From: a virus | Length of the DNA stretch: 64,000 nucleotides | Virus record (IMG/VR): IMGVR_UViG_3300002026_000005 | Reading direction: 5' to 3' (one strand) | The notes under the pieces: generated by a model | Databases searched by the model: none | Told to the model about the DNA's origin: nothing | The model's input: the letters and a program-made list of their open reading frames with translations, nothing else | Part shown: positions 36,601-63,400 of the stretch, piece after piece | Layout: each line of letters opens with the position of its first letter | Position numbering within the stretch: position 1 is the first letter of the stretch | Made by a program: the position numbers and the translations under genes

Positions 36601-39448
36601 TTCCGAACAGGAGAGGATTCTGTTCTGGCAGTTGAGAGAGCTCGGACTGGTTATGATGAGAGACAGGAATAGGGACGAAGAATTCCAAGAAGACTACGAG
36701 GCTGACCCAGAATCAGCCGGAACCAGTCTAACTAAACAAGAAGTTCAGTGGAATAGGAGGCTTTTCGAACACATCAATAGGGTTGTCGACATGAATGCCC
36801 CTAATCAGGCTCTTGGTAGACAACTCGCTATCTTCCAACAGGAGTTCGATGAGCTTCCTGAACACGAGAAGAACTCCCTAAAAAGAACGGCTGCAGCCAA
36901 CCAGTCGGATGAACCCTGGAGATGACTTGAGTCCTTCAAGGAGTTTGTTCAGGACAACTATGTCATAGACAAGGGTTGGCTACCGATATGGACAAAGGTG
37001 AAGCCAAAGGCCGATGCTGATGGTTACGTCGAGTCTCTCGGTATGGATGAAGGCAGTGATGGTAGTGGAAAGATAAAGGCTGTTGAGTCTGCTCCAAAGA
37101 TGATGTGGATGAGGAGGGAATTCAAGACAGAGTACATGAACGATGACTACTCTGAGACGGATGGACGTCCTGACCCCGTGAAGTACAACGAAGCCTACTT
37201 CAATATGGAGCAGTCCAACACGAGGTTCGTTGAGCTCCACAACAAGTTGAAGACCTTCATGGACAGAACAGTCGAGTACTTTGGTGGAGGTATAATCGGC
37301 AACGGATTCATCCCCTCAGTTCGGAGTGATATGAGGTCAACTCGAAAAGCTATTGCTGAGGACGTGTTCCTACTGAAGGGAAGTGTTAGGAGTGAGGATG
37401 ATGAGGTTCAGGAGGGAAAGGGTTTCAAGAGCAAACTACTGAAGAAGAAAAAGAAGTTGGGAGAAGGTGTGAAGGTTTCCCATTCTGGTCAGAAGTTCGA
37501 GTACCTGAGTACCCACTACAACAAGAGACTCAACCAGATGAAGAAGCTCGACATCATCAAGAGGAAGACTGTTGAGGATAAGAACGGGAAGGCGGCGTTG
37601 GAAGATATGGATTCCTATGATGAACGCATGAGAGAATATCTGGACAAGCTTCATGGCAACGGAAAAGGACGAGTTGATGGGAAGTTCGAGCCGCTGTATC
37701 TTTCAGACACACTGAGTTTCGATCTGAATGAGAGCGAGCTCTGGAAGAGGGTGATGGAACTGAATGAGATGATCGAGTTCGAGAACGAGAAGAATCATGG
37801 AGATAATCTGGACTCGAATCTGAAGGAGACGATGAAGCTCCACATCTCTTCCAGCCGATACCATAAGCACATGCTCCAGATGAAGGACCAGGTGGATGGA
37901 CTAACATCCATAGGACGTTCTGGAGGTCTGAAGTATGAGAACCCGGGCACGTATGACTTGTTTAGTTGGAAACACTTCGGGAAGAGGACTCCTTTCGTGG
38001 AAGACTTCTCGAAGACTAATGCCTGGCAGTCTTTCGAGGACTGGGTTGATATGCACTACTACAAGACTGGAACAGATCCGAAGACTCTTTTCCATAGGGG
38101 AGTAAAGGTGGTCAAGAACATCTCATCTCTTCAGAGGATACTGGGATCAATCACGACGATGGTATCTAACTTTAGGCAGATAAATATCTCCATCCTGAAG
38201 CATGCGATTGTTGGGAGAGATTTCTCCTTCAGTAACTATTTGTGGGCAAGAAGGCTCGTACTGAATCCAAAGTTTGCTATCGACTGTATGAGCAAGAGTA
38301 AGAGGAAGAGGAATATTCTGGCTTCTCTTGTGGAGACACTCGGAATCATGACTGATACAACGGAGTTCGAAGACGGTATGAGAGGTGCGATGGCTAAGAC
38401 TAAGTCTGAGACTGCTCAGAATGTGGTGAAGGTCGGATACTGGTCACAGAACTTCCTCGAAACCAATGGTCAGATAATGGTTGCCATAGCAAAGATGAGA
38501 GCCGTGAAGGTCAAGAACAGTTCTGGAGAATTGGTGCCGATGACGGATGCCTTCGAGATGACAGAGATCGTGGACGGAAAAGGTGTAGCGAAACTTGGTG
38601 ACGGATACACCATCTTTAATCCGATGAGACAAGAGTGGGAGAAGTTGACGATGGACCAGGTTAGGGATGTTGCACTAAGCATCAGAAATATTCAGTCAAG
38701 TCTTGGAGGAAACTTCTACAAGAACAGGGCGGAGGCCATTCATCACAACAAGTTCATGGGACTCGGAGAACTTCTATTCCAGTTCAATAGACACGTTCCG
38801 GGTCATGCCAGAAAGTGGGGACAGCTGAAGTCTTCCTTTGATGAGGAGTATGGACGCAGTGTGAAGGGGGTGTTCGGAACACTCTGGGACAACAAGAGTC
38901 CTAAGGCGATGTGGAAACTGATGAGGACGGCTCTGTTCACTATGAAGGATGCGAAGAACAAGATGATCCTGAACGGAATAGATGAAACAGACTTCTACAA
39001 CATCAGATTCCTCTCAACAACGATGGCTTTTATGGCTGCGTCTGTCGTCATCTACAACCTGATAGCAGCAGGCGGCGATGATGATAAGTGGAAAAAGAAG
39101 GGGATCCTGCTGAATCTACTTGCGAGACAGATAGATGACATGTACTCAGAAGAAGGGTTCTTTACAGTTGGGGCCTTCTCTGAGAGTCAGAAGAAGTGGG
39201 CGAAACCTTTTGCCTCCTTGAGTGTGATGAATGAGAACTTTGAGCTCCTGTTCCAGGCAGTATGGGACGGGTTCAGGCTGATGTTCGGAAAAGAAATGGA
39301 GAGATATAAGGCGGGGTCGATGTATGGTGAATACAAGTTGAAGGACAAGTTCAACCAGGCTATACCGATATGGAGATCAATCTATAGACTTCAGAACATG
39401 CACCGATACAACAAGTCATACCAGAGTAGGATGATCAGATTCCTCTAG
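33611..39448 (+). CDS. giant cargo-like virion protein with an N-terminal zincin module and two in-frame TGAs (33761-33763, 36923-36925)
   Basis: The ATG at 33611, ORF 33869..36925 and ORF 36998..39448 all lie in one frame, and both gaps are free of TAA and TAG, giving 1945 codons. HEYGH is at 34145-34159. The gene ends in TAG and is followed by the bidirectional terminator. Confidence 0.6.
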
Positions 39449-47929: not shown

Positions 47930-48781
47930 CTAACACTCAGCCATCCTAACCGTTTGGTACAGCTCATCTGAGCTCATTTTGTTCACTGTCTCCGTACTCA
48001 CTTCCGTACCGTTCAGAGTCAGTGCTTCTAGACCATGCTGTATTCTCAGGACCTTTCTGACTCTCATCAGGATCTCGGGGAACAACTTAGTCCATTTCGA
48101 ATCGGATATCGTCTTACTCTTGTGAGTAATTAGACTCCTTCCTGTTGCAAGCAAGGCTTCTGGCTCCTTGCTCCATGTTGTGATCATTATCGTCTCCATC
48201 CATTTCTCCAGAGCCTTTTCTTGCTCCGAAGTCAGACCAGGTACAACTCCGTTCTTCTGGGCCTCATGCACCGAGAAGGTCACACTGCGGGGACTCATCT
48301 CGAGCATCCTCTTTCCGAGATCATCAATCGCATTCCTCTTTTCCTGAGACAAATCAGGGTTAGAACGAAGCATCAGAAGTTTCACCGTCTGATACGCATG
48401 CTCTATTGAAGGACGCTCTCTCTCTTTGTCTCCATAGGTGAACACAACCTTACGAGGATACATGTTTCCAAGTTGGACATTGTCTCCGTCCTTGTCGTAA
48501 ACATTCAGGACAGGTTCTGTCTCCGAATAGAGAGCATGGTAGTCGGCTCCAGTCTTCTTGGTTGAAGTTTTGGTAGAGTGACTACTGCCTTCAGACTGTT
48601 TGGTTTCGACATGTTTTTCAATAGGCTTAAAATTCTCGAACTTGACTATGTTTTTCTCGGCATAATCTCTTCTTGCTCTCCAGTATACTGAGTAGGTGTA
48701 CTTTGCGTCTCCTGATGGGAACGCTGATGATATAACCCAACTTCCGTCTTCATCCTTGAAAGCCTGTCCAGATTCAACCAT
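47930..48781 (-). CDS. NADAR (YbiA/DUF1768)-like domain module, in frame with the upstream polymerase frame
   Basis: LGNMYPRKVVF...RPSIEHAYQTVKL, EPEALLATGRSLITHK and W..LFPEILMRVRKVL follow the NADAR signature order, compared from memory with E. coli YbiA (SEHYFQAQKF ... LLATAPAKLVEH). It ends in TAG. Upstream it is joined in frame through TGA 48788-48790 and TGA 49013-49015. Confidence 0.6.
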   Translation of the reverse strand: MVESGQAFKDEDGSWVISSAFPSGDAKYTYSVYWRARRDYAEKNIVKFENFKPIEKHVETKQSEGSSHSTKTSTKKTGADYHALYSETEPVLNVYDKDGDNVQLGNMYPRKVVFTYGDKERERPSIEHAYQTVKLLMLRSNPDLSQEKRNAIDDLGKRMLEMSPRSVTFSVHEAQKNGVVPGLTSEQEKALEKWMETIMITTWSKEPEALLATGRSLITHKSKTISDSKWTKLFPEILMRVRKVLRIQHGLEALTLNGTEVSTETVNKMSSDELYQTVRMAEC

Positions 48782-49012
48782 CTTATTTCATGTAGCAATC
48801 TCGTTCTCTTTTGAGTAAAGTTTTCTCATCTCATCCAAGAATAGATATGTTGCCACGTTCACTTCCCTTTCGGAGAAACCAGACTCTTTAGCGTGCTCCA
48901 TGAAATCCTTGTAAGAATATTCGTTTCCGATCGATGTAAAGTATCCTACGGAGAATTTTCTTATCTCATCAAGTCTACTATCCTTCTTAGGCTGCTGTGC
49001 CTCCTTCTGGTT

Positions 49013-52000
49013 TCAAGCCTTCTTCTCGGTCTTCCAAGTCTTCACATAGACAGACGTGTCTCCATTTGGCTTCTCTTCGTAACCCTGTCCAAGCAACCAC
49101 TTGATGATGGCGTGCTCTGAATGGGATCCATTGATGAAGTTGTTCTTACTAGAATACTCAGTCGAGTCCATCGCGAAACTTGCTCCTGCCTCAATGGCTT
49201 TCTCCATGTTGGCTTTCGTGTTCTCGAACTTCAGTTGGGATGCCCCGAATTCTCCTTCACCGCCTGAGTTTGAGACGAAAACGATGTCGTCCGACTCATA
49301 GCTTGTGTCGTTCACGGGAATTCCTCTAGTCTTCGCACTGTTGGCATACGACAGAGTCGAACTCCTCTTCTCGTTGTAGATACCCTTCTCGGCATAGATG
49401 AACTTGTTGGAGATAGAGGACTTCCTCATATCCTTCCTAGTCTGTTCCTGTTTCGATTCAGTCACGGCATCCAGAGTGAATCCGAACTTCTTTGTAGCCT
49501 TCTCTCCATCTGGATCTGATTTCGGACCAAATCTCTTGATGGCATCCAAAAGGACTTCTCCGTGACACCTGTAGCTTGTGCCTTTTCCGTGGGCACCGAA
49601 ACAGACAAGGGTTTTGTCGTCGAGGTTTCCACTCAGGATCTTGCTCACTATCCAGCTCCTTCTTTCGGGTTCGGTTTCTTTCGTCGTCATCTCTTCTCCA
49701 TCTTGACCGATGAAGACCTTGTGGGTGTAACCATCTGGATCCAGCTCAGACATCAACCAGGCCTCAAACAAGTCTACTGACCTATTCAGGTTTAGGTGGT
49801 CGTCGGCTCCAAACATTTCGGGGTTGCCGTAGTGTCTGTTGCGGGACATGTTCTGGGCGCCTCTGCCTATGAAGACGTAGTCGTCCATCACGCCGTTGTC
49901 GTCTGATTGTTCCTTCAGGGTCATAGAGAGTTTGGAGTTGTTTATGTTTCGGGACTTCTCTGTCTTCATCTTGTCCTTCACAAGAACAAGAGCCTTGTCA
50001 AGCAGTTCAGAACTGAAAGAGACCTTGAACTTCTCTATCTCTTCTACCATTGTCTCTAAGTCTATTATCTCATCGTAACGGAAGATGATTCCATCTAAGT
50101 CTGAACCATCCTGATTGGATGAGACAACTTCGGACAACATGTCTGTCATCGCGTTTCCGGTCATCATCAGTCGTACTCCCAACTTCTCGGCTATTCTGAT
50201 AGCTCTGTCATTCGTACTCTCAAACATCTCGATATCGTTTCCGTCTTTGTCTTTCGTCTTTCTGAATAGACTTCTCGAAACTGTTTGGAGTGACGGCAGC
50301 CCGAACTCGAAGAACTTTCCATTGGATTCTGATAGGATCGGAACCTCTATGTAGACATTGATCTTTTTCTTTCCGTCTTTTCTGTCCCCAATCTTCTTGA
50401 AGAGTTTTCCATTATCATTCGACATCACCCTCAGGAAACGGACAGAAGTCTTAGACAATTGTTCGTTCGTAACCACACTCGGAATCATCAGGTACGGAGA
50501 ACCAGAATAAGTTTCCCAACTATCCATCTCAAGCACTCTTACCCCATCTACTTCTGACATCCAACCTTTGTCGTTCACGACACCCTCATTCAGACGAGGC
50601 ACGACATCAGAGTTGTAGGCATTGTTGCCATGAATCTCATCAAGGATGTTGATGCCTCCGTTACCTTCCCGAAGGAAGTAGGTTGGGTCATTCAGTTCGA
50701 TCTTCATCGCATCCGTGAAAGAAGTAAATGATTGACCCTCGAAGCCCAAGTTTTCCAAGAAGAATCGGGGAGGAATAACCTTGATGACGGAGTTGTTGCT
50801 GAAATCCATCTGGTTAGAAAGGATAGTATGCTTAATCAAAAGTACCCCAAATTGTTTCTTTACCTCAGATATTCCTCTCTCAACTTCTGTGCCTCCATTG
50901 TTGCCTTCGAGCATCGACTCAAGTTCATCCATGATTGTCTGGATGAAAATCCGATCACGAGGATCCTTGAATTGGAACAGACTCATGAAGGAGTTATCCT
51001 GGGTTTCACCAGGTTGGGTCATCGGCACCAGCTTGTGGACGATCGAGTCCTCATTGAACTCTCCAGACAACCTAAGGATGTCTATCAGCTCAACAAGACT
51101 TCCAATAGACTTGAAGCCGGCCTTCAGTTCCTCTTCATTTGGAGCAATATTCCTCAACATAACCTTGAGGTTATGGATACGGCTATTTCTCTTCTGACCA
51201 ACATCGAAGCTGAATACTTGCTCATTGGATTTCGCTTTGGAGTTAAGTAGGGTTCGGAGGTTGACAACGGCATCCCAAAGTTCTGGGAACGTCGCCTTAA
51301 GTCTTTGCCCCGAATCGGTTCTCTTCACGGCATCCTTGTCTGCGATAGTCTTCGGTTCAACCATGTCGATCCTGATTACTCTTCCATTGGAATAGACATT
51401 GAAGAGTTTCATTCCAATAAGGAATATCTTCTCTCTCTGTATCTGGGCATCAATTCCCTTCTTTCCGGCTTTCAACATCTGGTCTTCGAGATTCTTCCTG
51501 TAGTAATTGAACATGATCTTTCTCTCCAATGTCGATGTGATGGAACTGATGTAGTCGACATCCCTATTGAAGGCATCTAGTCTCTGAAGCACACCCAGGA
51601 ATGCGGGTGAATACTTCATGAAATGGGGAGCAATAATTCCCAAACTCTTGTTGAGAGCCTTCGTGAAGAACGTCTTCAATACGTCATACTTACTGTCTGG
51701 CCCATAGATTGCCTCAGCAACAGGAGTCCCGTCAATAGTCCTTATACAGTCTTTTGCTTGTGACACTTTTTCCATCTTGCTCTTGAATTTTAGTGTGTTC
51801 ATCACTTCTGGACCACTGCTACGGGTATCGGCGTCAACTACTTGAGTTGCTTCCTGTACCCTGAATGCTATCCCGTTTATGTTCTTGAAAATGTTCAACA
51901 TCTCCAACTGGAAAGCCATGTCGGTTTTCGTCATCGATCTCTGTCCATCCTTATCACCAACAACAGAAGCTGCATGGGCTTTCAGGGCACTAAACATCGA

Positions 52001-55000
52001 CCTCTTATCGAGATGGTTTATTTCGGCCCTGTCTCCGAGAAGGAACTCATCGAATCCCACAACGGTCTCTCCTCTTATGGCTCCGATCTTCTGTAAGCCA
52101 GATATGAGAGAAGACTTGATGGAAGAACTCGAGTTACTCAGCCTCTGGGAAAGTTCCTCAACAGACATCGACTTAGATGGCCATCTGGAGAAATGTTCTG
52201 TTTCGGCATAGGTTATTTCTCCCATACCCACAACAGCCTTTCGGATCCATTTGGTGCGGGTGTTCGTGAACATCCTGTTGTCACTCACATTCTCTTCCGA
52301 AACCATTCCTTCAGAATCGATTTTTCCCTCAAAGATTTCCCTGATGGATGGTTGAGCCACGAAGAACGACACCGTCTCTAAGTCGATTCCCATCATCAGC
52401 ATCGCCACAATCGTGTTGATACTCTTCTTGTTCCATCCCAACGGGATTGGCTGCTTGATGATATCGAAGAAGTTCGCAGGAAGTTTTGCCAACACCTGGG
52501 TAATGGTAAGACCCTTGTCCATACCTTCTGCAGAACCAAACAAGATTTCTCCGTTCAGGCCCTCATTCCAACCCAAGTGCTTGTGTTTCACGATGACACC
52601 AGTCTCTTCTCCCTTTCCGTTTAGAACAATCTCTACTGCCTTTCCGAATGTCTTGAGAAGGTTTTCCTTCTCAGAGATATCGTAGTAGACAGGAACTTCT
52701 TTGAAGGCTGTTGCCCTGATCTTCTGGAAGATATGGAGCGCGGCCAAGGACTTTGCTCCGATACCTTTCAGAGTCACACCATTCACGGCAGCCTCTCTGA
52801 ACAGGAATTGACCCATAACTGAAGTCGGAACGATATCTTTCTCGTCTATCTTGTAGAGAGCCGAGATGATGTCCTTTATCCTAGTTATCTCCTTGAAAGA
52901 AGCCGGGTCAGTCATTTCCTTGTGGGAATCCTTGTGCTTCAGAATAGAGGAGAAGATATCCACGATCTTGTTCTGTTCAGCCATGAAGAACTTCCTTTCC
53001 AATAGGGAGAGTTCTTTCTTCTCCTTCTCTTCAAGAACGTCTTTCTCTAGCAGTTGGGCGTAACGGAAGTCTTCTTCTTCTGTCATTCGTAGTAACTTAA
53101 CCTTGTCTTTCATGGACTCGGACATTTCTTCCTCAGTCATTTCTTCGTCCGAAAACAGCATCGTTCTCAGATCCATTCCATTGTCCTTCATCAGGTTGTA
53201 GTACATAAAAAAGTACTTGTCTCCGTCGAAATCGAGACCCGAAACTCCCTGTATCTCATGGGGTCCGACTACTACTCCCCTGTAGACATCTGGAAGGAAT
53301 CCGACTATCTTGTAACGGATGGTGGAGTACTTTGCCTCAGTCGGGATCCTGGCACAAATTCCTGACAAAACCTCATCGCTGAGCTCGTCTATGCTGAACC
53401 TGTTCAGGATTCCTTGTGGACGAGCCACAAGGATTTCGACCTCAGTAACTTCCCCATTCTCCAATTTGGAGAACTGGAGTCTTCCTGGTGCCTTCTTCGA
53501 GCTCCATTCGATTCCCCCAACATTCTTGTCCCAAACGTAACCTTCTGGCTTCTTGAAGCCTAGGGCCGAAACGTTCACGGCAGAGCCTCCAGGAGTACTC
53601 TCTTTCTGAACCGAGTTCCACATGGATGCGAGCATCGATTCGAATTGGTAGGCGAGACCCGGCACGTCGAGGAACATCTTCTCAACAAGCTCAATAGAGT
53701 TTGACGGGATCCGTCCAGAGTTCCGGATCTGGTCTATTACTGTTTGGTACAGTTCTAGTCCTGACTGCTTCAGCTCGATCTCGGTAGAAATCTTCTCGGC
53801 AATGTTGAACATGGTTTTCTCATAGAGTTTCATCAGGTCCGAACCCTTCATCGTACTTCCTCCAACCTCATACTCGGCCTCCAAATTCATGTTGGAGAAG
53901 ATGAGTTTCCTCAGCTGGGTTAGAGCCGAGGCATCATCGTCCTTGAAGTGGTCTGGAAAATCCTGTTGGGTTCCGAGTTTCTCTATTGGTAACTCCCTTA
54001 CCATACTCTTGTCGAACTTGGTTTCGTCTACAGTCTCATCAGAGTTGAAAATATTCATCACTGAAGTCATTCCGACCTTGAAGGCTGATGGTGGTACCGC
54101 CATATCTACTTCGTTCTCTTCCATAAACTTCCTGAGCTTCTCTAGTTCCGGCAAGGAACTCGTGATGGCTTTCGAGAGTATGAAGAATCCGGCCTTGATC
54201 TGGTTAGCACTATCGAACACGACCTGATCTCCATCAGCTGTGTCGTATGATATTTGTTGTCTATCGAAATAGAAGAGCTTCAGGACAGGAAAGAATTCCT
54301 TCTGGAGACTCTTATTCTCACTATTGAATAGGGTTCCATTGTCTGCCGCATCCAGAGCTTTCTCTAGACTCTCAGTGAGTTGGTTACGGCTACGGAAGTA
54401 GTCCTTCGCAAACTTTACTGATACGAATACCTGACCATTGTTTACCTCTGCATTTCCCTCTACCTCAACATCATTCGTCTGGATAACTCTGAAGTTCGGT
54501 CTGTCCCACAAGTGACGTAGAGCAGGAGACACCATTTGTTTGGCTCTCTTGTTTGTCTCCAACATACTCTTGTAGAGATAGATGTCTCCATTGAGCTCCC
54601 TAAACTGGGTGCTGTAGGCGAGATGGGAATTGATGACGAAGCTGTAGATGAATTCTTCAGGAGTGATGTTTCTCTCCAAGAAGTTTCCATTGTCTCCATT
54701 GATGTTTGTCTTGACGACATTATCCAAGAAGGTTCTGTACAGTTTTCCGGCTTCGGTCTTCGTCTTCTGTTTCTTGAAGTCGGCGAGGAATATCTTCGAC
54801 ATACTTTCGACATCCTTCTTGATAAAGTCGGCAATCAACTTCTCTATCCTTTGGTATGACATCGACTGGGGCATCTGTCTCAATTCCTCCTCAGTAACAT
54901 TACTATTACCGACCTCATTGTAGACATCGAAAAAGGCATCCTTCATGAAGATTCCCCTGCTATGGAGACTCTTGATGTCCGACACTGTTCTCCCATCAAC

Positions 55001-57697
55001 TTTCAGGTGAAGGAACTTGAATGCATTTCCTACTGGAAATACATCCTCGAGAGTACTTACGTCGGCTCCAGTGTCATAGTTTTCATCCATGAAATTTCCG
55101 TTCACCTTTGATTGGTAGACAAACTTCTTATTCTTGATGATGACTCTTCTGTTCTTAGACTTGGATTCCATAATGAGAACCTCTCCGTCTGAAGCGATTA
55201 GGTAGTGAGCAAACTGGACAAGCTTTGTTGTATCAAGATTCTTGTTGAAGAAATGTTGACCCTTCTCATCCAGAGTGACTTCTGTGTTCCACTTTGAGGT
55301 GTCGAAAAAGATTCGGTTGTTGTCCCAAACTCTTTTCATCTCCTCTCGGATGCTGTTGAAGACGGCTCTGAACATCGGATTCGATTCGTGGTTGATGAAC
55401 TCCGCCACATCTTTCGCATTATTCTCATCACTCCAGTCAACTGTGTAGCTGAAAGAGTCCTGAAAGTAGTGGCCTTCGATACCGATACGATTCTCATTCT
55501 TTCCGACATAAATCTCTGCTTCCGAATTAAATATCGATGTACTGTCTGAAGGGATCACGATAGGCACAACTGCCTTGCCGTTCTTGAACCCATTCATGAA
55601 GTTTATCATCGTCAAGTATCTCCAGTCCTTCTTAGATAGACCCAAGTATTTCGAACCTTTTCCGGTGCTGCTGTTCCTCATACCCCCAATAGAATGGACT
55701 TTTCCGAAACGTCTAGGCATGCCAGATTTCTCGTTCTTCAGGCTCTCTTCAGTTAGGTGGTTGTATTGGGAGATACCGAACTCTTTCTCTCCCGAGAAGT
55801 TTATCATCGTATTCTCGACACTCTCGATAGAGAAGATGGCAAGAAGCTTCGATACCCTTTTTAGGGAAGAGTTCTCATCCTGGACATTCAGTTGGTCGAG
55901 ACTAATCTCATAGGCAGACTTCTGGGAATTTATGTCATTGATGAACGCCTCTAGAAGCTCTTGGGGTTGAAGGTTGCCTATTCTATTCTTATGAATGTTG
56001 TAGGCGGCAACCGTGATGATTCCGTTTGGACGGTAACCATACTCGGTATCCCACTCTCCATTGGAGAAGTTCGTCTTCTTTTCGTCCATGTTTACTTGGC
56101 TATAGAACACGTTTCCTCCCTCAATAGAGACTCCCAAGATCCTCCAAAGCCTTCCCAAAGTCAGGGCATACAACGCGCTGTCTTTCGAGAACTTCTTCAG
56201 GTTGTCCAACGTCTTGAAGATCTCTGACTCAGGATCATTCAGGCCATTACCGACAAGAGTCTTTTTCAACTCAGAGTTGTCCCTAATCTTCACGATCTGG
56301 GAAGCAATCATCTTCGAGATCCTCATCTGGATATGGTCGTTGGTTGAGGTCTTGTTTGCCTTGTAGGTAGAACTAATCATCTGGCCTTTGGTTTCTCTAA
56401 GAGACACACCAAACACTTCTTGTTTCTTCTTCCTGAATAGGTTGAACCAGTCGACCTTGAACTTCTGGTCGTTCTTCATCAGGTTGGATATCTCGAGGAA
56501 ACTTGAGTTCACCATCTTGCCGAGGAATTCAAGCTTCTCTATCATCTCTTCTACTGTGAGTAGGTCAGATAGTTGGTTGCCGAGGTAGCTCTTGTATTTG
56601 CTCAGGATGAATGGGGTATCGATACCTCCAAAACCCTTCACGGGAATCACACTACCTTCTGTGAACGAGATCTTCTCGCTGATACGTGCAAGCTGTATCA
56701 GGATGTAGGGACTTGGCACATGGGGATCTACCTTCAGATGACTTCCGTCAGCAAAAGAGGTTCTCTCATGGGACACTATTTCTGTCACCTTGTCCGTATC
56801 AAGCTCGAGCATCGAGATATTGAACTCATCATAAATTACTTTTGTCGCGTGTTCAAAGAAGCCGCTGTTGTTTATGGCACCCACTACTCTCCTCAGTTGG
56901 TTGATAGAGGAACTAATAGCGTCCACATTCATCCACTTTCCATAGGAGAATCCTTCGGTTTCCATCTGGACAACAGACGAATTCCTCTTGATGAAGTCGA
57001 CGTCTTCCTTGGTGAGCTCCTTGCGACCCTTGCGGCCGTCTATCTCTAACAGCTCAGTTAGGATTTCTATCCTCCTGTTTAGTTCAGACAGGACAGAATT
57101 CTTTGAAGCAGTCTGGATAAGTCCCGAAACAGTTCGACTCTTGTCTTTCGACATGAAACTGAGTAGTTCTGTTCGAACAGTCTCTTTGGCATCCTCTAAG
57201 ACTGAGTCAAGTTTCTCTTCCATCGCATCAAGTTTCCTCGACACCGCCAGAATCTGGGAGTCCAACTTTGACAACATCTGTCTCAAGACAACTGTGTCAG
57301 ATTCAGATAAGTTTTTTATCTCATCAACAAGACGCTCTCTTTCGGCAGTAAGTTTGGAGAACTCTAGACTCTTCTTGTCCAGAAGTTCAGACCTCTTTCC
57401 CAACCCGCTTTGGACATAGATTTTCTCCACAAGAGCCTTAATACGCTTGTCCTCAATGGCACTCGGGTTCTCGATTTTGGACACGATGTCCTCAATGAGT
57501 TCTGTCAGGGCATTCTTTGTCTGAACGCCGGCCTCATCCATAACCTCTGTGTTGGTCAGGATGGAATAGAGACTCTTTATGGCCTCGTGTTGTTCAGAGA
57601 AGGAGGAGAACTCTGAGAAAGACGAATGTCTTTCTATTCCCTCTATCATCTTCTGAACTCTTCGCTGTGAATTGCTTTTGAATCGACCTCTTTCCAT
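49013..57697 (-). CDS. giant virion-type two-barrel RNA polymerase (crAss-like / phi14:2 gp66-type) with a C-terminal DUF4326-like module
   Basis: 2894-aa uninterrupted ORF. The beta-prime-like DPBB motif ARIPTEAKYS...VVVGPHEIQGVSGLDFDGDKYFFMY places DFDGDK at 53216-53233. The C-terminal segment YVFIGRG...RHYGNPE...LVCFGAHGKGTSYRCHGEVLLDAI (about 49540-49879) matches the DUF4326 pattern. The ORF is bounded on both sides by TGA, not TAA or TAG. Confidence 0.8.
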   Translation of the reverse strand: MERGRFKSNSQRRVQKMIEGIERHSSFSEFSSFSEQHEAIKSLYSILTNTEVMDEAGVQTKNALTELIEDIVSKIENPSAIEDKRIKALVEKIYVQSGLGKRSELLDKKSLEFSKLTAERERLVDEIKNLSESDTVVLRQMLSKLDSQILAVSRKLDAMEEKLDSVLEDAKETVRTELLSFMSKDKSRTVSGLIQTASKNSVLSELNRRIEILTELLEIDGRKGRKELTKEDVDFIKRNSSVVQMETEGFSYGKWMNVDAISSSINQLRRVVGAINNSGFFEHATKVIYDEFNISMLELDTDKVTEIVSHERTSFADGSHLKVDPHVPSPYILIQLARISEKISFTEGSVIPVKGFGGIDTPFILSKYKSYLGNQLSDLLTVEEMIEKLEFLGKMVNSSFLEISNLMKNDQKFKVDWFNLFRKKKQEVFGVSLRETKGQMISSTYKANKTSTNDHIQMRISKMIASQIVKIRDNSELKKTLVGNGLNDPESEIFKTLDNLKKFSKDSALYALTLGRLWRILGVSIEGGNVFYSQVNMDEKKTNFSNGEWDTEYGYRPNGIITVAAYNIHKNRIGNLQPQELLEAFINDINSQKSAYEISLDQLNVQDENSSLKRVSKLLAIFSIESVENTMINFSGEKEFGISQYNHLTEESLKNEKSGMPRRFGKVHSIGGMRNSSTGKGSKYLGLSKKDWRYLTMINFMNGFKNGKAVVPIVIPSDSTSIFNSEAEIYVGKNENRIGIEGHYFQDSFSYTVDWSDENNAKDVAEFINHESNPMFRAVFNSIREEMKRVWDNNRIFFDTSKWNTEVTLDEKGQHFFNKNLDTTKLVQFAHYLIASDGEVLIMESKSKNRRVIIKNKKFVYQSKVNGNFMDENYDTGADVSTLEDVFPVGNAFKFLHLKVDGRTVSDIKSLHSRGIFMKDAFFDVYNEVGNSNVTEEELRQMPQSMSYQRIEKLIADFIKKDVESMSKIFLADFKKQKTKTEAGKLYRTFLDNVVKTNINGDNGNFLERNITPEEFIYSFVINSHLAYSTQFRELNGDIYLYKSMLETNKRAKQMVSPALRHLWDRPNFRVIQTNDVEVEGNAEVNNGQVFVSVKFAKDYFRSRNQLTESLEKALDAADNGTLFNSENKSLQKEFFPVLKLFYFDRQQISYDTADGDQVVFDSANQIKAGFFILSKAITSSLPELEKLRKFMEENEVDMAVPPSAFKVGMTSVMNIFNSDETVDETKFDKSMVRELPIEKLGTQQDFPDHFKDDDASALTQLRKLIFSNMNLEAEYEVGGSTMKGSDLMKLYEKTMFNIAEKISTEIELKQSGLELYQTVIDQIRNSGRIPSNSIELVEKMFLDVPGLAYQFESMLASMWNSVQKESTPGGSAVNVSALGFKKPEGYVWDKNVGGIEWSSKKAPGRLQFSKLENGEVTEVEILVARPQGILNRFSIDELSDEVLSGICARIPTEAKYSTIRYKIVGFLPDVYRGVVVGPHEIQGVSGLDFDGDKYFFMYYNLMKDNGMDLRTMLFSDEEMTEEEMSESMKDKVKLLRMTEEEDFRYAQLLEKDVLEEKEKKELSLLERKFFMAEQNKIVDIFSSILKHKDSHKEMTDPASFKEITRIKDIISALYKIDEKDIVPTSVMGQFLFREAAVNGVTLKGIGAKSLAALHIFQKIRATAFKEVPVYYDISEKENLLKTFGKAVEIVLNGKGEETGVIVKHKHLGWNEGLNGEILFGSAEGMDKGLTITQVLAKLPANFFDIIKQPIPLGWNKKSINTIVAMLMMGIDLETVSFFVAQPSIREIFEGKIDSEGMVSEENVSDNRMFTNTRTKWIRKAVVGMGEITYAETEHFSRWPSKSMSVEELSQRLSNSSSSIKSSLISGLQKIGAIRGETVVGFDEFLLGDRAEINHLDKRSMFSALKAHAASVVGDKDGQRSMTKTDMAFQLEMLNIFKNINGIAFRVQEATQVVDADTRSSGPEVMNTLKFKSKMEKVSQAKDCIRTIDGTPVAEAIYGPDSKYDVLKTFFTKALNKSLGIIAPHFMKYSPAFLGVLQRLDAFNRDVDYISSITSTLERKIMFNYYRKNLEDQMLKAGKKGIDAQIQREKIFLIGMKLFNVYSNGRVIRIDMVEPKTIADKDAVKRTDSGQRLKATFPELWDAVVNLRTLLNSKAKSNEQVFSFDVGQKRNSRIHNLKVMLRNIAPNEEELKAGFKSIGSLVELIDILRLSGEFNEDSIVHKLVPMTQPGETQDNSFMSLFQFKDPRDRIFIQTIMDELESMLEGNNGGTEVERGISEVKKQFGVLLIKHTILSNQMDFSNNSVIKVIPPRFFLENLGFEGQSFTSFTDAMKIELNDPTYFLREGNGGINILDEIHGNNAYNSDVVPRLNEGVVNDKGWMSEVDGVRVLEMDSWETYSGSPYLMIPSVVTNEQLSKTSVRFLRVMSNDNGKLFKKIGDRKDGKKKINVYIEVPILSESNGKFFEFGLPSLQTVSRSLFRKTKDKDGNDIEMFESTNDRAIRIAEKLGVRLMMTGNAMTDMLSEVVSSNQDGSDLDGIIFRYDEIIDLETMVEEIEKFKVSFSSELLDKALVLVKDKMKTEKSRNINNSKLSMTLKEQSDDNGVMDDYVFIGRGAQNMSRNRHYGNPEMFGADDHLNLNRSVDLFEAWLMSELDPDGYTHKVFIGQDGEEMTTKETEPERRSWIVSKILSGNLDDKTLVCFGAHGKGTSYRCHGEVLLDAIKRFGPKSDPDGEKATKKFGFTLDAVTESKQEQTRKDMRKSSISNKFIYAEKGIYNEKRSSTLSYANSAKTRGIPVNDTSYESDDIVFVSNSGGEGEFGASQLKFENTKANMEKAIEAGASFAMDSTEYSSKNNFINGSHSEHAIIKWLLGQGYEEKPNGDTSVYVKTWKTEKKA

Positions 57698-57718
57698 TTG
57701 TTTGATTGTTAGGTTTGT

Positions 57719-58477
57719 TCAGGCACGCTTATTTCCAAGCATGCTTCTGATTGTTGTTATTAGGTTCTCGAAAAATGTCCACACCGATTCTGGTATGAAC
57801 GAAGGTCGTCTGTAATACTTCACACTGACGTCCTCATACATGTCCGCTAATCTTTCTTCTAGCAAGATCTCTCTCGCCTCATCCAACTCCACTCCACTCA
57901 TCTTCATCTGGGAAGACAGTTCGTCTTCACCGATCTTGAACATGGCTTTCGCCTCCTTCAGGATCTTTTCTCTTGTTTTCGCATCCAAACTCCAGAAGAT
58001 TAGGTGAAACACTTCGTGTCTCAGAACCTTCTTGTTTGCACCCTGCGATAGGTGTATCATCCCGTTTGCCATGTAACCCCACAGCTTACGGCCTTTCTTC
58101 TTTATTATTCCTTCATGAAAACTAACAAGGTCCTCGTCTCCGAGAAGCCTATCTATCTCCTCAATAACTTCTTCATCACTCTCTATACTATTTCCAAGAT
58201 GTCTCGAGTCTTCCTCGAAAGGTTTGGTTCTAAATATATCCTCTACGTCCCTAAGTAAACTTTCTTGATCATCTTTCGGATCCTTAACGGTCTTCCCGGC
58301 CTCAACTATTGGAGCTGTCTCTATCGAGTCTGGTTTCTTTGCCCTACTTACTCTCATCTTCTTCACGAGCAACTTCATCCTGCTCTCTGGGGAGTCCTCG
58401 AAATGGGTCAAGATCTTTCCTTTCGCATCCCGAACACTTCCGACGTCTGTGGTCAGACCAAAGGTCTCAACCAACAT
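57719..58477 (-). CDS. zincin-like HExxH metallopeptidase module, in frame with both flanking ORFs
   Basis: HEVFH lies at 58004-58018 and is followed by EERLADMYED. The module is joined upstream through TGA 58571-58573 plus 31 open codons. It is joined downstream through TGA 57719-57721 plus 7 codons to the polymerase ATG. Confidence 0.6.
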   Translation of the reverse strand: MLVETFGLTTDVGSVRDAKGKILTHFEDSPESRMKLLVKKMRVSRAKKPDSIETAPIVEAGKTVKDPKDDQESLLRDVEDIFRTKPFEEDSRHLGNSIESDEEVIEEIDRLLGDEDLVSFHEGIIKKKGRKLWGYMANGMIHLSQGANKKVLRHEVFHLIFWSLDAKTREKILKEAKAMFKIGEDELSSQMKMSGVELDEAREILLEERLADMYEDVSVKYYRRPSFIPESVWTFFENLITTIRSMLGNKRA

Positions 58478-58570
58478 CTCTTTGTAGCTGCCGTATTCCT
58501 TACCGACTCTATCTACACTCAGATCCTTTCCGATCCTGTCCCCGTGTCTTGCCGACTTACCAAAACTGTT

Positions 58571-60397
58571 TCAGTTGATATTCCTCTTCATGTCTTTCCA
58601 CATGCCGTGGTTCAGAAGTAGTTGTTCCAACTCGACTTCAGTCATCTCGACAGACTTCTTCTCGAAAAGACTTCCTTTTACTACAGTCCCATCAGTGATG
58701 ACACCAACTGGAGTAGAAACGATCGAACTCATCTGGGAATCACTAAGTTTAGTTCCGTCTCCGAAGTCGGTTCTCATGTCGAAGTGATTGAAGACCGAAA
58801 CCTCATAGATGGTTCCACTCGCATCCGAACGGGGCACTATCTCCATCGTCTTGAAAACTCCTGCACTTCCCTTTGGTTTCCGAGTGGTTGTACTGGAGTC
58901 TCTCCACGTAATGGATACACGCCCACCTTCTTTCGATGCCCTAATAGTTTGAGTCATAAGGTTCTCGTCATACATCCCATTACTCCACTCAGTAGACCCG
59001 AGTATTCCACTCTCGACAAGACTCGCAACCTCATCAAGTGTCGTGTTACAATACTTGATACCAGTGTCTTCACTCTTGTAGGCCTTATCCATCTTGATTG
59101 GCCTATAGTCGTGACCCGTAACAAACACCGTATCGAGCACTAGTTTCAGGGCCTCAGGGTTCTGTCTCCCAACCAGACTTCCGAGAAGGAAGTTTATGGT
59201 GTTGTCGACATCCCTATTGTCTGTGAGTGTTCCTGTCTGGAGAGGGATGTACATGAATCTCTTCTCACCAGATTGGTCATTGTACTGGATGCGGGTGTAG
59301 ACTTTTCCCACTTCAAAAGAAGGAGCACCAGCCACATTGGTTCCGGACTCATCGACGCTCACGAACTGGTTGGAGGCCATAGACACGTGGAACAACTCTA
59401 CCTTGTCGGCTTTCTTCCCGAACGCCGTTGTCAACTTCATCTGACCCCAACCTGACTCGTCCTTTCCTCTAGCCTTTATCACCCTGCCTCCAGTTGTACC
59501 GAAAACTTCCACCGAGCTACGGAAGCCCTTGTCGACCTTGATGTTTTCGAAGAAGTCGTGGCGGAAAGCAGACAACTTCTCTCTCTCCCTATACATCTGG
59601 AGCAACCTCAGACTCTCTCTCCTAAGAAGGATTTCGTCGGCCTTTATGGCTCTCGAGATTTCTGGAGTAGAGACCCCTATAGACTTGTTGGCCTTGATTC
59701 GGGCACGGGCGTCTTCCATCGAGGAAGTTATCCTCCTCATGTAGTCGTCCGTAACCTTTATCGTCGGAATTCCGTACTCCACAACCTCCTTAGTGTTCCC
59801 ATCAATCACAACGGTTCTCTTTGAGGCAATTGGGAGGTTCTCGGCAGAGAAGTCATAGTGTTCCTTTCCGACAGCACTCTCATCGAAGACGAGGTCTATC
59901 TTGAAACTCTTGGCTGATACTGATGATGACGCCTCAAACATCTGTCTCTTGGCCGAGTCATCAGCAACCTCATAACCGAACTCGGTTCTGTTTAGTCCCG
60001 ACATCGGCTCTATGGGAAGAAGGATATCACTCAGCTTCTGTTCATTCTGGGGAATGGACTTGATGATGGACTCGGCCACGGCATCGAAGGTTCTGAGCTT
60101 CTGCTCCCCATTCTCGATGTGGGCGATTCCCTCTATAAAGTAGTCCTCAGCCTTCTGGTTTCTGTCCATAAGGAGACGAGCAATGTTCTCGTACTCAGTC
60201 TTCAGAGACGCCTTATTCCTCATGAAAGTCTCACCAGTAATACCGAGTTCCATAAGCAAACTCTTGATAGAGATCGTTATCGGAACCCCAGTAGACTTGG
60301 CACTTCTACGAGTCTGGTCAGTAAATTCTCTCTCCCCAATCCTCCTGATAGCTGCGGAGATCAACTCCATTGCCTCTTCGGCACAAATTCCTATCAT
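58571..60397 (-). CDS. N-terminal module of the polymerase polyprotein frame (608 aa, function unknown)
   Basis: The ATG at 60397 is bounded upstream by an in-frame TAG. The ORF ends at a TGA and continues in frame. Confidence 0.55.
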   Translation of the reverse strand: MIGICAEEAMELISAAIRRIGEREFTDQTRRSAKSTGVPITISIKSLLMELGITGETFMRNKASLKTEYENIARLLMDRNQKAEDYFIEGIAHIENGEQKLRTFDAVAESIIKSIPQNEQKLSDILLPIEPMSGLNRTEFGYEVADDSAKRQMFEASSSVSAKSFKIDLVFDESAVGKEHYDFSAENLPIASKRTVVIDGNTKEVVEYGIPTIKVTDDYMRRITSSMEDARARIKANKSIGVSTPEISRAIKADEILLRRESLRLLQMYREREKLSAFRHDFFENIKVDKGFRSSVEVFGTTGGRVIKARGKDESGWGQMKLTTAFGKKADKVELFHVSMASNQFVSVDESGTNVAGAPSFEVGKVYTRIQYNDQSGEKRFMYIPLQTGTLTDNRDVDNTINFLLGSLVGRQNPEALKLVLDTVFVTGHDYRPIKMDKAYKSEDTGIKYCNTTLDEVASLVESGILGSTEWSNGMYDENLMTQTIRASKEGGRVSITWRDSSTTTRKPKGSAGVFKTMEIVPRSDASGTIYEVSVFNHFDMRTDFGDGTKLSDSQMSSIVSTPVGVITDGTVVKGSLFEKKSVEMTEVELEQLLLNHGMWKDMKRNIN

Positions 60398-60465
60398 CTG
60401 TTTTCTATTAAAATTGTTCTATATTGTTTCCCATGTCTTTACTTCTATCATTAGTGTATGGCTTA

Positions 60466-63400
60466 CTAGCAATTCCTGATGTTCGAGAACAGGCCGTTGC
60501 CGGCGTCTTCATTGTTGTTCTGGAGCATCTCTATCAGGTCTGATGGGTACAGGAAGGAACTCTTCTTCAGACTCTTGTTTATCATCGTTACCAACTCTTC
60601 CTCTGTTGTCTTGCTGCCTATTTCCATCTTTACTTTCTTCCCGGTTACTCCCATAATCGAGAAGAAGAATCTTCCTCCTTCATCGTGAATGAGCTTCCTC
60701 AAGTAGAGTTCTTTCACGACTTTCCCCACAAGCTCATTCTCGAACGGAACAACCTCATTCACGTCTAGGTTCTCTGAGGGTTCAGATGCCTCGTTAGATT
60801 TCCTCTGGTTCAGGTCGTTCTTGTAACGTGCTGTGTACAACCCCAGTTTCAACATTGCTGCCTCATCCAGGATCTTGTTTCCGAACCTCATCAGGAGCTC
60901 CAAGTCGTTCTGGACTCTCTCACTCAGGAGGTTCAGGTCTCCGTACTCATCCAAGCTGGTTTTGTTCTTAGCTGTCTTGGCAAGGAAGTCCTCAAACCTC
61001 TTATTAAACCAGGTCAAAGCATCCGAGAAGATCCTTCTCTCTCCTTCAGTCAGACTATTGACGATACCAAGGTTCCCGACTACAGTCTCTCTCACAGCAA
61101 TGGACATCTTACGAGACACGTTCTTCGGATCAAACTCACCAGTCTCCTCTGGCTCTCTTGTGTTTTGGTTCCCACTCTGACTATCGTTACCGAGAGAGTT
61201 GTAGTAATCCTCCTGCTCCTGTCTCTGTTGTTCTTCCGAACTTCCAGATGTCGCATCAGGATCTACTCCAAACCCTTCGTTCACTCCACTACTTCCCTCA
61301 ACGTCATCAGTCTGAGACTGGTTCTGGACAGGTGCCGGCTGTTGCTGATTCAGGTCATTCAGGTTCTGTTCCTGAGTGAGACCCACTCCGCTATTACTGC
61401 CACTATTCCTATTGGCATCAACGGCTGCCGTCCTCTCCTTACCTGACTTGATCTCTTCGATGGCCTCATCTATTGTCGTGATTACGTCGTCCCTATCTAG
61501 GGAATGGTTCCAGTTCTTCTCGAAGTAGGCCTTTGTCCTCTTTCCGAGTTTGAACGGATTCCCAAGCAGAAGCTCTGCCGCCTTCGATACGCTGTTGCCG
61601 ACTTTAGCCAACTTTGATTTCTCTCTGTTCAGACTCAACAACTTCTTCTCCTCCGGATCCTTCGTCTGTCTCCAAGCCTTGTCGAAACTCACTTCTTCCT
61701 CGTTTATCTCCTTGCTATCCTGGAGCTCCTTCAGTCTATCCTTCTTCATCTGTTCGAGAGTAGACAGTTTCTTCTCCGTGTCTTCCTTCGAGTCCAGTAT
61801 GGCCTTGACATTGGCTTTGTCTTCCTTCTTTCTGTCCAGCCTGAATTTGTTCCAGTTCTTTCTCTTTTCCCGAAGGATCTCTCTCGGATTCGAGTGGAGA
61901 CTCATCAGTCTCTGGTGGTTGCTGGCATACTCAGAGGTAGACTCATTCAGCTTTCCGATAGAAGAGAGATAGTCCTGGAACTTTTGGGCATCATGGATAC
62001 TCTTTATCTGGTTCGGATCCTTCAGCATCGCCTTCAGGTTCGGGTCAACCGTTTTGTCTTTCTCAAGACGACCCCAGGCTTCCGTCCTCTCCTTCTCTTT
62101 TCTCTTGATGGATTCCCTGTTCAGCCTGATATTGTTTCTGATACTCAGCTTCTCCTCACGGGAAATCTTCCTCAAACCTTTCTTGTCTAACATAAGGAGA
62201 GTTCTCATCGTCTCATTCTGAATCATTTCCGTCTCTATCTGGGCGTTCTTCTTGATGTAGTCTTTCGAGTTCTGGTCAAGCTGTTTTCCGCTGTTATCCA
62301 CAATGGTCTTCATGTACTCGGCCTCAGCCTTGTTCATGTTGGATTCATTCTCTCTCACCTGCTTCAGGATCTTGTCCATCTTGTAGGCTCCCTGAAGACG
62401 CTCCTTGAAGACAACGGCTTTCTCGAGTTCCGACAACTTCCTGGTGGAAGCATCTGTCTCTATCTGGTTCCAGACAGCTCGGGCATTCTTTAGCCTCGAA
62501 ATCTCTTCCCCGAACTCTTTCTTCCCAATAGTGACTTTCTTTCCGTCTACTTGGGTCTCGACCTCTTTCTCCTTCTCGAGCATCCCTATTCGGGCATCAA
62601 CTCTCCCATTCTGGATGGCATCATAGTAGGAAGAGATGCGGGCGTCATCTTGACCTGTTTCCGTCATGTGTTTAGCGAGACCCTGGAGATTCTTTTTCTC
62701 CCTGATCTCATTCTTTAAGCCCTTTATTTCACTGTAGAGACCCGGGACGTTCATTGGGTTGAAGACACCCATAATCATACCGGCCCTCACTGAGTTCCCG
62801 AACTCATTTGAAACAAGTCCGTTTGTGTCTCCTATTCCTGTCATCGCCTTTGCTACTGTTCCGTAGTCATTGAAGAGATTCTTCGCGTTCTTTATAGTGA
62901 ACTCGTTCAGTCCGACTCCGTCCTTTCCATACTTCTCATCTCTCTCTCCCGGAACATTCGGCACATATCATCCGTTCTTGTTCTTCTTCCAGAGTGTTCC
63001 CTCCAGTTGGTTGTTGGCTCTCTGTCCCGCAACGTCCTGAACACCTTCTTCAACTCCTTCCATGATGGAACCGATCATCTGTTTCATGAGGAAACTCGAT
63101 ATCTTTCCGGCATTCGTGTTTCCGAGCGTCCAGGGCATCATCCCCATTCCACTCTGAGCATAGTCACCCCACTGGAGAGCCATGTTCTCGGCACGAAGGT
63201 CGTTCATTCCTTTTGAGGCCTCTAGTCTTATGTAGTCATCTATCTCGGGTGGAATCTCTGCCTCTGGAGACAGACCGTTCCTGGCTCTGTAACCGTCCTG
63301 AAACTGTTCCACTCTCTCCTTGTAGGCTCCACCAACTTCGGCATTCGTCTCCCTCTCTCTGGCATACCTGTCAGCCGCGAAACGGACTCCTCCAGACAAG

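Follow-up and report, generated by a model that had tools for sequence, protein, structure and literature searches.

A NADAR domain at the C-terminus of a crAss-like phage RNA polymerase, joined to it through in-frame TGA codons

In the 64,000-nt stretch of IMG/VR virus record IMGVR_UViG_3300002026_000005 that we analyzed (hereafter the window, whose numbering is used throughout), a large open reading frame (ORF) resembling the virion RNA polymerases (RNAPs) of crAss-like phages ends at a TGA codon, and two TGAs further downstream lies a short ORF with motifs reminiscent of NADAR enzymes. The locus raises the question of whether the two are parts of one protein and, if so, what a NADAR domain would do on an RNAP of a kind that enters the cell with the phage DNA. 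An earlier note, made from the sequence alone, had proposed that DUF4326-like, alpha/beta (α/β)-looking and NADAR-like modules were appended to the RNAP as virion-delivered counter-defence. We find that the RNAP core, the DUF4326-like module, the α/β module and the NADAR domain all lie in one 4155-residue reading frame, ordered as an N-terminal HExxH region, the RNAP core, the DUF4326-like module, the α/β module, a linker of ~155 residues and a His-type NADAR.

Under the standard code, this gene is cut into ORFs of 608, 252, 2894 and 283 aa and a 74-codon gap. The 2894-aa ORF (49013..57697, minus strand) stops at the TGA at 49013-49015, 74 sense codons lead from there to a second TGA at 48788-48790, and after AAT AAG an ATG (48781) opens a 283-codon ORF (47930..48781) that ends with TAG at 47930. 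The 2894-aa ORF, the 74-codon stretch and the 283-aa ORF share a single reading frame. When only TAA and TAG are counted as stops, an ORF of 4163 codons spans 47930..60418 with only four in-frame TGAs, compared with one TGA per 20-40 codons in off-frame ORFs. Since TGA is read as an amino acid (see below), the gene extends over 60397..47930, for a protein of 4155 residues. Its features are the following; all motifs quoted in the earlier note were found, on the minus strand, at the places where it had put them.

60397..47930, minus strand: full RNAP gene when TGA is translated, 4155 codons followed by a TAG stop at 47930-47932
58571..58573, minus strand: TGA 1, residue 609; the next 31 codons show in-frame coding codon usage (log-likelihood ratio, LLR, 0.433)
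58004-58018, minus strand: HEVFH (HExxH) motif, between TGA 1 and TGA 2
57719..57721, minus strand: TGA 2, residue 893, just upstream of the ATG taken as the start of the 'polymerase ORF'
52700..54700, minus strand: RNAP catalytic core, from tblastn and profile homology to gp66 and Gp50
53213-53239, minus strand: GLDFDGDKY metal-binding motif, from a motif search
49547..49876, minus strand: DUF4326-like module, residues ~3508-3617, from a sub-threshold PF14216 match
49859-49879, minus strand: YVFIGRG, motif of the DUF4326-like module
49817-49837, minus strand: RHYGNPE, motif of the DUF4326-like module
49538-49570, minus strand: RCHGEVLLDAI, motif of the DUF4326-like module
49040..49489, minus strand: conserved α/β module, residues ~3637-3786, with homologs in P0005, P0013 and the L022 ORF
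49259-49291, minus strand: DDIVFVSNSGG, motif of the α/β module
49013..49015, minus strand: TGA 3, residue 3795, apparent end of the 'polymerase ORF'
48545..49012, minus strand: linker of ~155 residues (the 74 codons between TGA 3 and TGA 4, TGA 4, and the first ~80 residues of the 283-aa ORF)
48788-48790, minus strand: TGA 4, residue 3870, inside the linker
48026..48544, minus strand: NADAR domain, residues ~3952-4124, from homologs, hidden Markov model (HMM), fold and catalytic residues
48380-48409, minus strand: SIEHAYQTVK, NADAR Glu/Lys motif
48401-48403, minus strand: catalytic Glu3999, in SIEHAYQTVK
48380-48382, minus strand: catalytic Lys4006, in SIEHAYQTVK
48122-48154, minus strand: LLATGRSLITH, NADAR His motif
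48122-48124, minus strand: His4092, in LLATGRSLITH

The phage decodes TGA as an amino acid, and the inserted residue is probably Trp. All large TGA-terminated ORFs of the window (9/9) continue in frame into the next ORF, for a chance expectation of (1/3)^9. By codon usage, 48791-49012 has an LLR of 0.453 and 48500-48787 one of 0.359, where coding sequence averages 0.445 ± 0.13 and off-frame sequence -0.76. The 37 codons directly after TGA 3 contain no start codon and score 0.556 (coding, 0.44 ± 0.17; off-frame chunks, all below 0.3). Neither promoter-like nor terminator-like minus-strand sites were found between the RNAP and the NADAR. Two sites could be tested against homologs, the TGA that splits the portal gene and TGA 2. 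The tblastn matches to crassvirus portals run through the former in one piece, and this TGA faces W in the two closest homologs, the Suoliviridae portals of cr7_1 and cr118_1, and I in Fpv3. TGA 2 faces Y in the homologous protein P0014, whose alignment is unbroken both through this codon and through the supposed ATG start of the 'polymerase ORF'. The same sequence, TGAs included, is present in independent assemblies, and the TGAs (TGA 3 among them) are kept in a 99.5%-identical variant strain whose codon differences comprise 32 synonymous and 15 non-synonymous changes. TGA usage is sparse, with ~10 TGA versus ~190 TGG in the genes counted. Recoding of TGA to Trp in late genes is documented in crAss-like phages (Yutin et al. 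2021, PMC7886860); in the window phage, the replication-block genes contain 0 TGA versus ~1.3 expected, which does not statistically demonstrate a restriction to late genes.

The NADAR and the RNAP are physically linked by the reading of TGA as a sense codon. The module that the earlier note had placed two TGAs downstream of the RNAP, fused or co-translated with it, is therefore the C-terminal domain of an RNAP polyprotein and does not have a gene of its own; a share of translation may still start independently at the ATG or end at one of the TGAs. Single standard-code ORFs of comparable size, 4200 and 4223 aa, exist among the homologs of this RNAP.

TGA apparently serves as a sense codon throughout the structural and virion genes of the window (2481-39448, plus strand; 47930-63999, minus strand), for example at 3333-3335, 5898-5900, 26386-26388, 32216-32218, 36923-36925 and 62968-62970. 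The ORF pairs that fuse in frame include 2481..3335 and 3384..4580, the two parts of the portal (4959..5900 and 5904..7613), 31103..32218 and 32231..33187, 33869..36925 and 36998..39448, and 62968..63990 and 60466..62964. In a further pair, 23698..26388 and 26542..7564, both halves match PHROG 28748. With in-frame TGAs in many genes, the standard-code annotation of the genome is therefore fragmented. The cr7_1 portal (RefSeq NC_055895.1, L049) has in-frame TAG codons at positions 103 and 213 of the stretch examined, one of which aligns to a Gln of other portals, consistent with TAG-to-Gln recoding in cr7_1; thus, close relatives by portal use a reassignment that differs from that of the window phage. 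Twelve tRNA genes were found in the window and in ~12 kb of additional sequence searched (L005 and L052), and none of them reads TGA. Eight are in the window (42123-47217, minus strand: Arg-CCT, Met, Lys-CTT, Cys, Ile-GAT, Ser-GCT, Arg-TCT and Gln-CTG), Asn and Gly tRNA genes are located just past its right end (L005 281-570), and those for Leu-TAG and Phe are upstream of its left end (L052 1822-2059).

The C-terminal module is a divergent NADAR of the His type, similar to phage T4 gp30.3 (AdfN), as established by transitive profile, fold and catalytic-residue evidence. Direct searches did not recover it: scans of the 283/285-aa ORF with PHROGs and NCBIfam gave no NADAR match, the window protein has no direct match to Phage_30_3 (PF08010), and single-sequence PDB searches produced only noise. 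Word-indexed homolog searches returned only the query's own cluster or P0013, IMG/VR single-protein scans with the RNAP tail and the NADAR ORF yielded no match, and the RNAP tail matched no GenBank phage by blastn or tblastn. An exhaustive phmmer search of 1.84 billion representative proteins, however, identified 17 homologs of residues ~84-255 of the ORF (E 4e-8 to 1e-3). All 17 match Pfam NADAR (best 1.1e-25), and 4/17 match PF08010 (best 8.8e-7), with P0017 scoring 25.1 bits against a cut-off of 36. A profile of this family recovered Escherichia coli YbiA (2B3W, 3.8e-18) and Phytophthora PnNADAR (8BAU, 4.9e-14) from the PDB, and an HMM from which the window sequence had been excluded assigned 99.6 bits (E 7e-30) to the window NADAR and 7 bits to the next-best window ORF. 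The linker upstream of the domain (48545..49012) had no detectable homologs.

The predicted fold, which is alpha+beta as in other NADARs (five core helices with small sheets on the flanks), and the active-site residues agree with this assignment. The AlphaFold2 (AF2) model of the domain has a predicted local distance difference test score (pLDDT) of 86.6, and its sole credible PDB match in Foldseek is 8BAU (probability 1.0, TM 0.55/0.56; the rest ~0.15). In BFVD, the top 24 matches (Foldseek probability 1.00) are all viral; 15 are named NADAR or swarming motility protein, and 9 are unnamed or parts of larger proteins. All 11 family-invariant columns of the 17-sequence domain alignment are kept in the window sequence (11/11), including Glu, Lys and His. 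NADARs have a spacing of 7 residues between their catalytic Glu and Lys (Schuller et al. 2023, PMC11543638), which is also that of Glu3999 and Lys4006 and of E43 and K50 of PnNADAR; the equivalents in E. coli C7 NADAR are E88 and K95. The segment containing them aligns to the S(S/V)E...K motif of 8BAU and YbiA. At the third catalytic position, YbiA has Glu, DarT1-linked NADARs have Asp and phage NADARs have His (PMC11543638), and the rule that phage NADARs replace the last-strand Glu with His is also reported in PMC11125620. His4092 is invariant in the 17-sequence family and lies opposite E125 of 8BAU (LTH versus LYE). Thus, the NADAR-like call that the earlier note had based on two short motifs holds, with the catalytic Glu/Lys pair and the phage-type His retained.

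The large ORF upstream had been taken for a homolog of crAss-like virion RNAPs, and profile comparison bears this out. By tblastn, the core (52700-54700) matches 'putative RNA polymerase' genes of crAss001, crAss002 and Cellulophaga phages (2e-14), the crAss001 match being the Gp50 gene. A nine-sequence profile of the core matches residues 873-1444 of the phi14:2 DNA-dependent RNAP gp66 (PDB 6VR4) at 5.2e-59, with the catalytic DFDxD motif in register (GSDFDIDKMY with GLDFDGDKYF). The gene is part of the 'transcription block' of a genome from the Crassvirales, in which a major capsid protein of the Crass_capsid family and a crAss-type portal with ~50% identity to those of Suoliviridae are also encoded. 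Virion location is established for both reference proteins: gp66 is a virion component injected with the DNA, according to the passage of PMC7886860 that cites Drobysheva 2021, and Gp50 was found in crAss001 virions by mass spectrometry (PMC10172136).

The HEVFH motif in the N-terminal region aligns with HEALH of the 4223-aa homolog P0014. The HExxH region has no Pfam match, and jackhmmer gave no local homologs; the motif itself hints at what could be a zincin-type processing peptidase as in polyvalent proteins. Directly upstream of the RNAP gene is a large protein (60466-63999, minus strand) that extends past the window (L005 2708-6325) and contains one in-frame TGA, so that it was called as 371 and 832 aa in place of a fused ~1204 aa. 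It has no Pfam or PHROG match and is probably another cargo or 'transcription block' protein. Position 1 of the window is the exact start of an independent contig (ERZ2286707 NODE_975), and a 93.8-kb contig (ERZ2286684 NODE_1) carries the window sequence circularly permuted, its position 32716 corresponding to position 1 of the window. These observations are consistent with a genome of ~94 kb that is circularly permuted or terminally redundant and occurs in at least 4 samples.

The two modules between the core and the linker could be assigned with less confidence. The DUF4326-like module contains GNP and C...CH motifs and an insertion of ~23-30 aa. PF14216, which PMC9503650 places in the rhodanese-phosphatase clade and which is the only Pfam family found at E≤1 for this part, covers profile positions 13-81 of 82 and scores 18.2 bits (E 0.0042) in the 288-aa context, 20.9 bits (E 5.7e-4) for the domain alone and 24.4 bits once a 23-aa insert is deleted, next to a curated cut-off of 25. 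A weak match to phrog_464 (E 0.001) and weak similarity to residues 3287-3368 of the homolog P0005 were also detected. No homologs were gathered for a profile of this module, its AF2 pLDDT is below 50, and a regular-expression search for GNP...C...CH in related giant ORFs found none. A MAFFT alignment that put the DUF4326-like segment of P0005 onto the α/β module was misaligned and was not used. Of the DUF4326-type pattern claimed in the earlier note, the motifs are therefore present and membership in the family is probable, with a score that stays sub-threshold and does not establish it.

The second, unassigned α/β-looking segment noted before is a conserved domain with the pattern ...SST..YAN...Y.SDDIVFVS.SG... 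and three homologs (P0005 4054-4172, P0013 71-190 and residues 1242-1366 of a giant IMG/VR ORF, L022); in P0013 and the L022 ORF, it directly precedes the NADAR. Structure prediction, confident for the NADAR, was not so for the DUF4326-like and α/β region (mean pLDDT 47.7, reaching ~55-80 only in the α/β part). SLOG was rejected as an unsupported identity for the α/β module, given no Pfam match and non-significant Foldseek matches of a low-confidence model, and the same model gave only non-significant Rossmann/methyltransferase matches (E≥0.12), so that a methyltransferase was likewise rejected.

The fusion of NADAR to a crAss-type RNAP is recurrent, and examples are already deposited and machine-annotated. 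A degenerate-pattern scan of IMG/VR based on the NADAR alignment yielded 41 loci, most of which have the NADAR within a standard-code ORF of 2000-4700 codons. In 26/41, NADAR and a gp66-type core share one uninterrupted standard-code ORF, the NADAR following the core in 20 and preceding it in 6. The arrangement is also present in proteins P0006, P0014 and P0017, and in gp003 of the RefSeq crassvirus cr126_1 (Steigviridae; Kolpuevirus hominis; YP_010111697.1), a 2402-aa Gp50 homolog with NADAR at residues 48-209 and the core at 942-1558. RefSeq annotates it only as a 'DUF1768 domain-containing protein', a name that refers to the stretch identified here as NADAR. BFVD matches in cr272_1 and cr131_1 point to the same fusion. 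The earlier note had not seen this architecture described; it is present in the above sequence records, and no paper on the fusion turned up in full-text searches that combined crAss-like phages with NADAR or crAssphage with DUF1768.

NADAR is absent from crAss001 Gp50, and among GenBank phages, only cr126_1 and one Bacillus phage match it, whereas the Suoliviridae with the closest portals do not, so that the module has the appearance of sporadic, mobile cargo. Some NADAR-carrying RNAP homologs additionally contain an AlkB-like 2-oxoglutarate (2OG)-Fe(II) oxygenase and DUF7831 domains, and some family members carry cpYpsA/SLOG domains. In P0005 (3065-3689 and 4054-4172), NADAR is accompanied by a degenerate DUF4326-like segment with the Cys replaced, DUF7831, a weak AlkB-like match and the α/β module, and in P0017 (1224-1644), an AlkB-like oxygenase adjoins the NADAR. 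This variety suggests that these RNAPs carry a shuffled toolbox of nucleic-acid damage-reversal enzymes.

What would a NADAR accomplish on such a protein? By analogy with characterized systems, we propose that the RNAP tail is delivered in the virion and that its NADAR reverses guanine ADP-ribosylation on phage nucleic acid, a reading that we consider evenly balanced between right and wrong. As is the case with phi14:2 gp66 and crAss001 Gp50, the protein would be made late, packaged in the capsid and ejected with the DNA, so that the NADAR would be in the cell ahead of any phage gene expression. There, like AdfN, it would cleave ADP-ribose, by hydrolysis of the N-glycosidic bond, from the guanines of phage nucleic acid that DarT1-type ADP-ribosyltransferases had modified, and early transcription and replication would be able to proceed after removal of the ADP-ribose. 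The DUF4326-like module, predicted to be of a phosphatase type acting on ADP-ribose products, and the α/β module might process the released ADP-ribose or related compounds, and the modules might work either while tethered to the RNAP or once proteolytically released. T4 AdfN (gp30.3) takes ADP-ribose off phage DNA and defeats DarTG1 (PMC11825919), and a phage NADAR is active on ADP-ribosyl (ADPr)-guanine in vitro (PMC11125620); reversal of guanine ADP-ribosylation is therefore the likeliest role. Packaging of NADARs in virions, as well as DUF4326-SLOG-NADAR fusions, has been predicted before (PMC9503650).

Several observations weigh against this proposal. In settings other than its own infection, the T4 His-type NADAR failed to relieve DarT1 toxicity (PMC11125620, PMC11825919), and the target therefore cannot be assumed; in the view of Iyer et al. 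2022 (PMC9503650), phage NADAR, SLOG and DUF4326 proteins have soluble ADP-ribose derivatives as their main substrates. Virion presence and injection are known for homologs and are extended to the window protein by analogy, and crAss cargo proteins must unfold in part to pass the tail (PMC10172136). A TGA-reading (UCA) suppressor tRNA was not found in the ~76 kb examined of the ~94-kb genome, and the four TGAs may lower the yield of full-length protein. Pfam NADAR (PF08719) does not match the 285-aa translation at E≤1, the DUF4326 score stays under the Pfam cut-off, and the α/β module has no Pfam or NCBIfam match, with Pfam also silent for its three homologs. Finally, a near-invariant Ser of the NADAR family is replaced by Gly (LGNM for LSNF) and the central W-D and AK.LGR motifs are eroded, and activity could therefore be altered.

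A possible, if somewhat doubtful, alternative keeps the fusion and the delivery in the virion and changes the substrates, which would be small molecules, namely diffusible ADP-ribose-derived immune signals or toxins, instead of ADP-ribosylated DNA; the DUF4326-like, α/β and NADAR modules would break these down jointly. With the same reservation, such signals might come from TIR, sirtuin or ADP-ribosyltransferase (ART)-type defences, for example, cyclic ADPR isomers or ADPr-1''-phosphate. Iyer et al. propose a division of labour on soluble ADPr derivatives in which DUF4326 removes terminal phosphates (PMC9503650); a DUF4326-like module alongside NADAR fits that pattern, as do the cpYpsA/SLOG domains of some family members. 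However, the activities defined experimentally for phage His-type NADARs are only on ADPr-guanine in DNA, the α/β module gave no SLOG match, and the fusion to a DNA-tracking polymerase, together with the AlkB-like neighbours in homologs, points to nucleic-acid lesions. In short, the RNAP tether and the AlkB-like neighbours favour action on nucleic acid, and the DUF4326-like neighbour favours action on soluble signals.

If nucleic acid is indeed the substrate, de-ADP-ribosylation could even be coupled to transcription, with the tethered NADAR clearing lesions in cis, a refinement that we regard as unlikely. Its substrates would be the transcription bubble and the nascent RNA, since DarT-type toxins modify single-stranded DNA. 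The RNAP would then carry its own repair of defence-inflicted base damage, including, in some homologs, an AlkB-like dealkylase, and repeated selection for tethering might explain why NADAR occupies different places around the core in dozens of phages.

Quite unlikely, in our estimate, is that the TGAs act as true stops at least part of the time and that NADAR is a separate, unpackaged 283-aa cytoplasmic protein, AdfN-like and translated from the ATG at 48781. This ATG follows TGA 4 by two codons, gene callers annotate the 283-aa protein, stand-alone proteins are common among phage NADARs, and the ~76 kb examined revealed no suppressor tRNA. True stops are nevertheless difficult to reconcile with the in-frame continuation of 9/9 large TGA-ended ORFs, one of them encoding a portal that would be non-functional if truncated, and with the coding character of the start-less 37 codons past TGA 3. 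Moreover, a minus-strand promoter or terminator that would set the NADAR apart from the RNAP was not found, homologous RNAPs hold the same NADAR inside one standard-code ORF, and the first ~90 residues of the '283-aa protein' lie outside the NADAR fold and appear linker-like. It is very improbable that the domain is altered or inactive and serves as a binding or structural module of the RNAP, for example, to recognize ADP-ribose or NAD-capped ends: its divergence (no direct Pfam match, the conserved Ser changed to Gly, the W-D and LGR motifs lost) and the mention in PMC11825919 of a phage NADAR that acts without enzymatic activity are outweighed by the 11/11 invariant columns, catalytic Glu, Lys and His included, and by the high confidence of the predicted fold.

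The ingredients of the preferred reading, delivery of a NADAR within the virion RNAP to remove ADP-ribose from phage guanines, are all known: counter-defence by phage NADARs, predicted virion-packaged ADPr-processing enzymes, N4-type polyvalent virion RNAP proteins and TGA recoding in crassviruses. The idea is thus conceptually anticipated and the pattern is clearly recurrent, while the function is assigned by analogy. What is new is a crAss-type virion RNAP with a tail of DUF4326-like, unassigned and NADAR modules that recoding has concealed. Standard-code gene calling hides the architecture by splitting one protein into five pieces and orphaning the NADAR. To our knowledge, the phage answers to DNA ADP-ribosylation (AdfA, AdfB and AdfN) are proteins made after the onset of infection. 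If the proposal is correct, a de-ADP-ribosylase within the injected RNAP would close the period during which unprotected phage DNA and the first transcripts are exposed. The occurrence of the fusion in at least 26 uncultivated phage genomes and one RefSeq crassvirus suggests that crAss-like phages, the dominant ones in the human gut, are under significant pressure from ADP-ribosylating defences.

Comparison with known systems places the window protein at the intersection of several of them. As in the TGA-to-Trp crAss-like phages (PMC7886860), in-frame TGAs occur in the portal, other structural and RNAP genes, and the portal TGA corresponds to Trp; the differences are the sparse use of TGA and the suppressor tRNA, which was not found in the ~76 kb examined. 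With gp66 (PDB 6VR4) and Gp50, the window protein shares the homologous core with its DFDxD motif aligned, the giant size and the 'transcription block' location. In contrast, gp66 (2194 aa) and Gp50 (2412 aa) have no NADAR, and the window protein is ~1.8 times longer, with a C-terminal enzyme array and four TGA sense codons. A RefSeq counterpart, YP_010111697.1 of cr126_1, combines a NADAR of the same subfamily (E 3.7e-58 to the family HMM; ...TLTH...) with the same core in one ORF. There, however, the NADAR is N-terminal (48-209 of 2402), the code is standard, DUF4326-like and α/β modules were not detected, and the annotation names only the domain and leaves the RNAP unnamed.

The polyvalent proteins (Iyer et al. 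2017, PMC5512222), among them the N4 virion RNAP with its zincin peptidase and lysozyme, similarly unite a jump-start of transcription with counter-defence enzymes in a very large virion-embedded protein, and the HExxH motif of the window protein could likewise allow processing into separate units. The polymerases themselves differ, being of the two-barrel crAss type in the window and T7-like in N4, and searches with the HExxH region gave no zincin match; in the survey of PMC5512222, NADAR and crAss-type polymerases have 0 occurrences each. The DUF4326-SLOG-Macro-NADAR fusions of DNA viruses (Iyer et al. 2022, PMC9503650) resemble the window protein in having DUF4326-like and NADAR domains in one polypeptide, here with the α/β module between them, and in their predicted early deployment from the virion. 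Those proteins are described as typically stand-alone or small fusions, whereas the window array is appended to an RNAP, its DUF4326 match is sub-threshold and its middle module is not demonstrably SLOG. With T4 gp30.3/AdfN and other phage NADARs, which serve as orphan antitoxins against DarTG1, the window domain shares the fold, the Glu/Lys pair 7 residues apart and the His in place of the last-strand Glu. Moreover, 4/17 members of its family match Phage_30_3, and the role proposed here, removal of ADP-ribose from guanine on phage DNA, is that of AdfN. But AdfN, made early by T-even myoviruses, is small and stands alone, whereas the window domain, too divergent in sequence for direct detection by Pfam, forms the C-terminus of a 4155-aa virion RNAP homolog of a crAss-like podovirus and would arrive in the cell pre-made.

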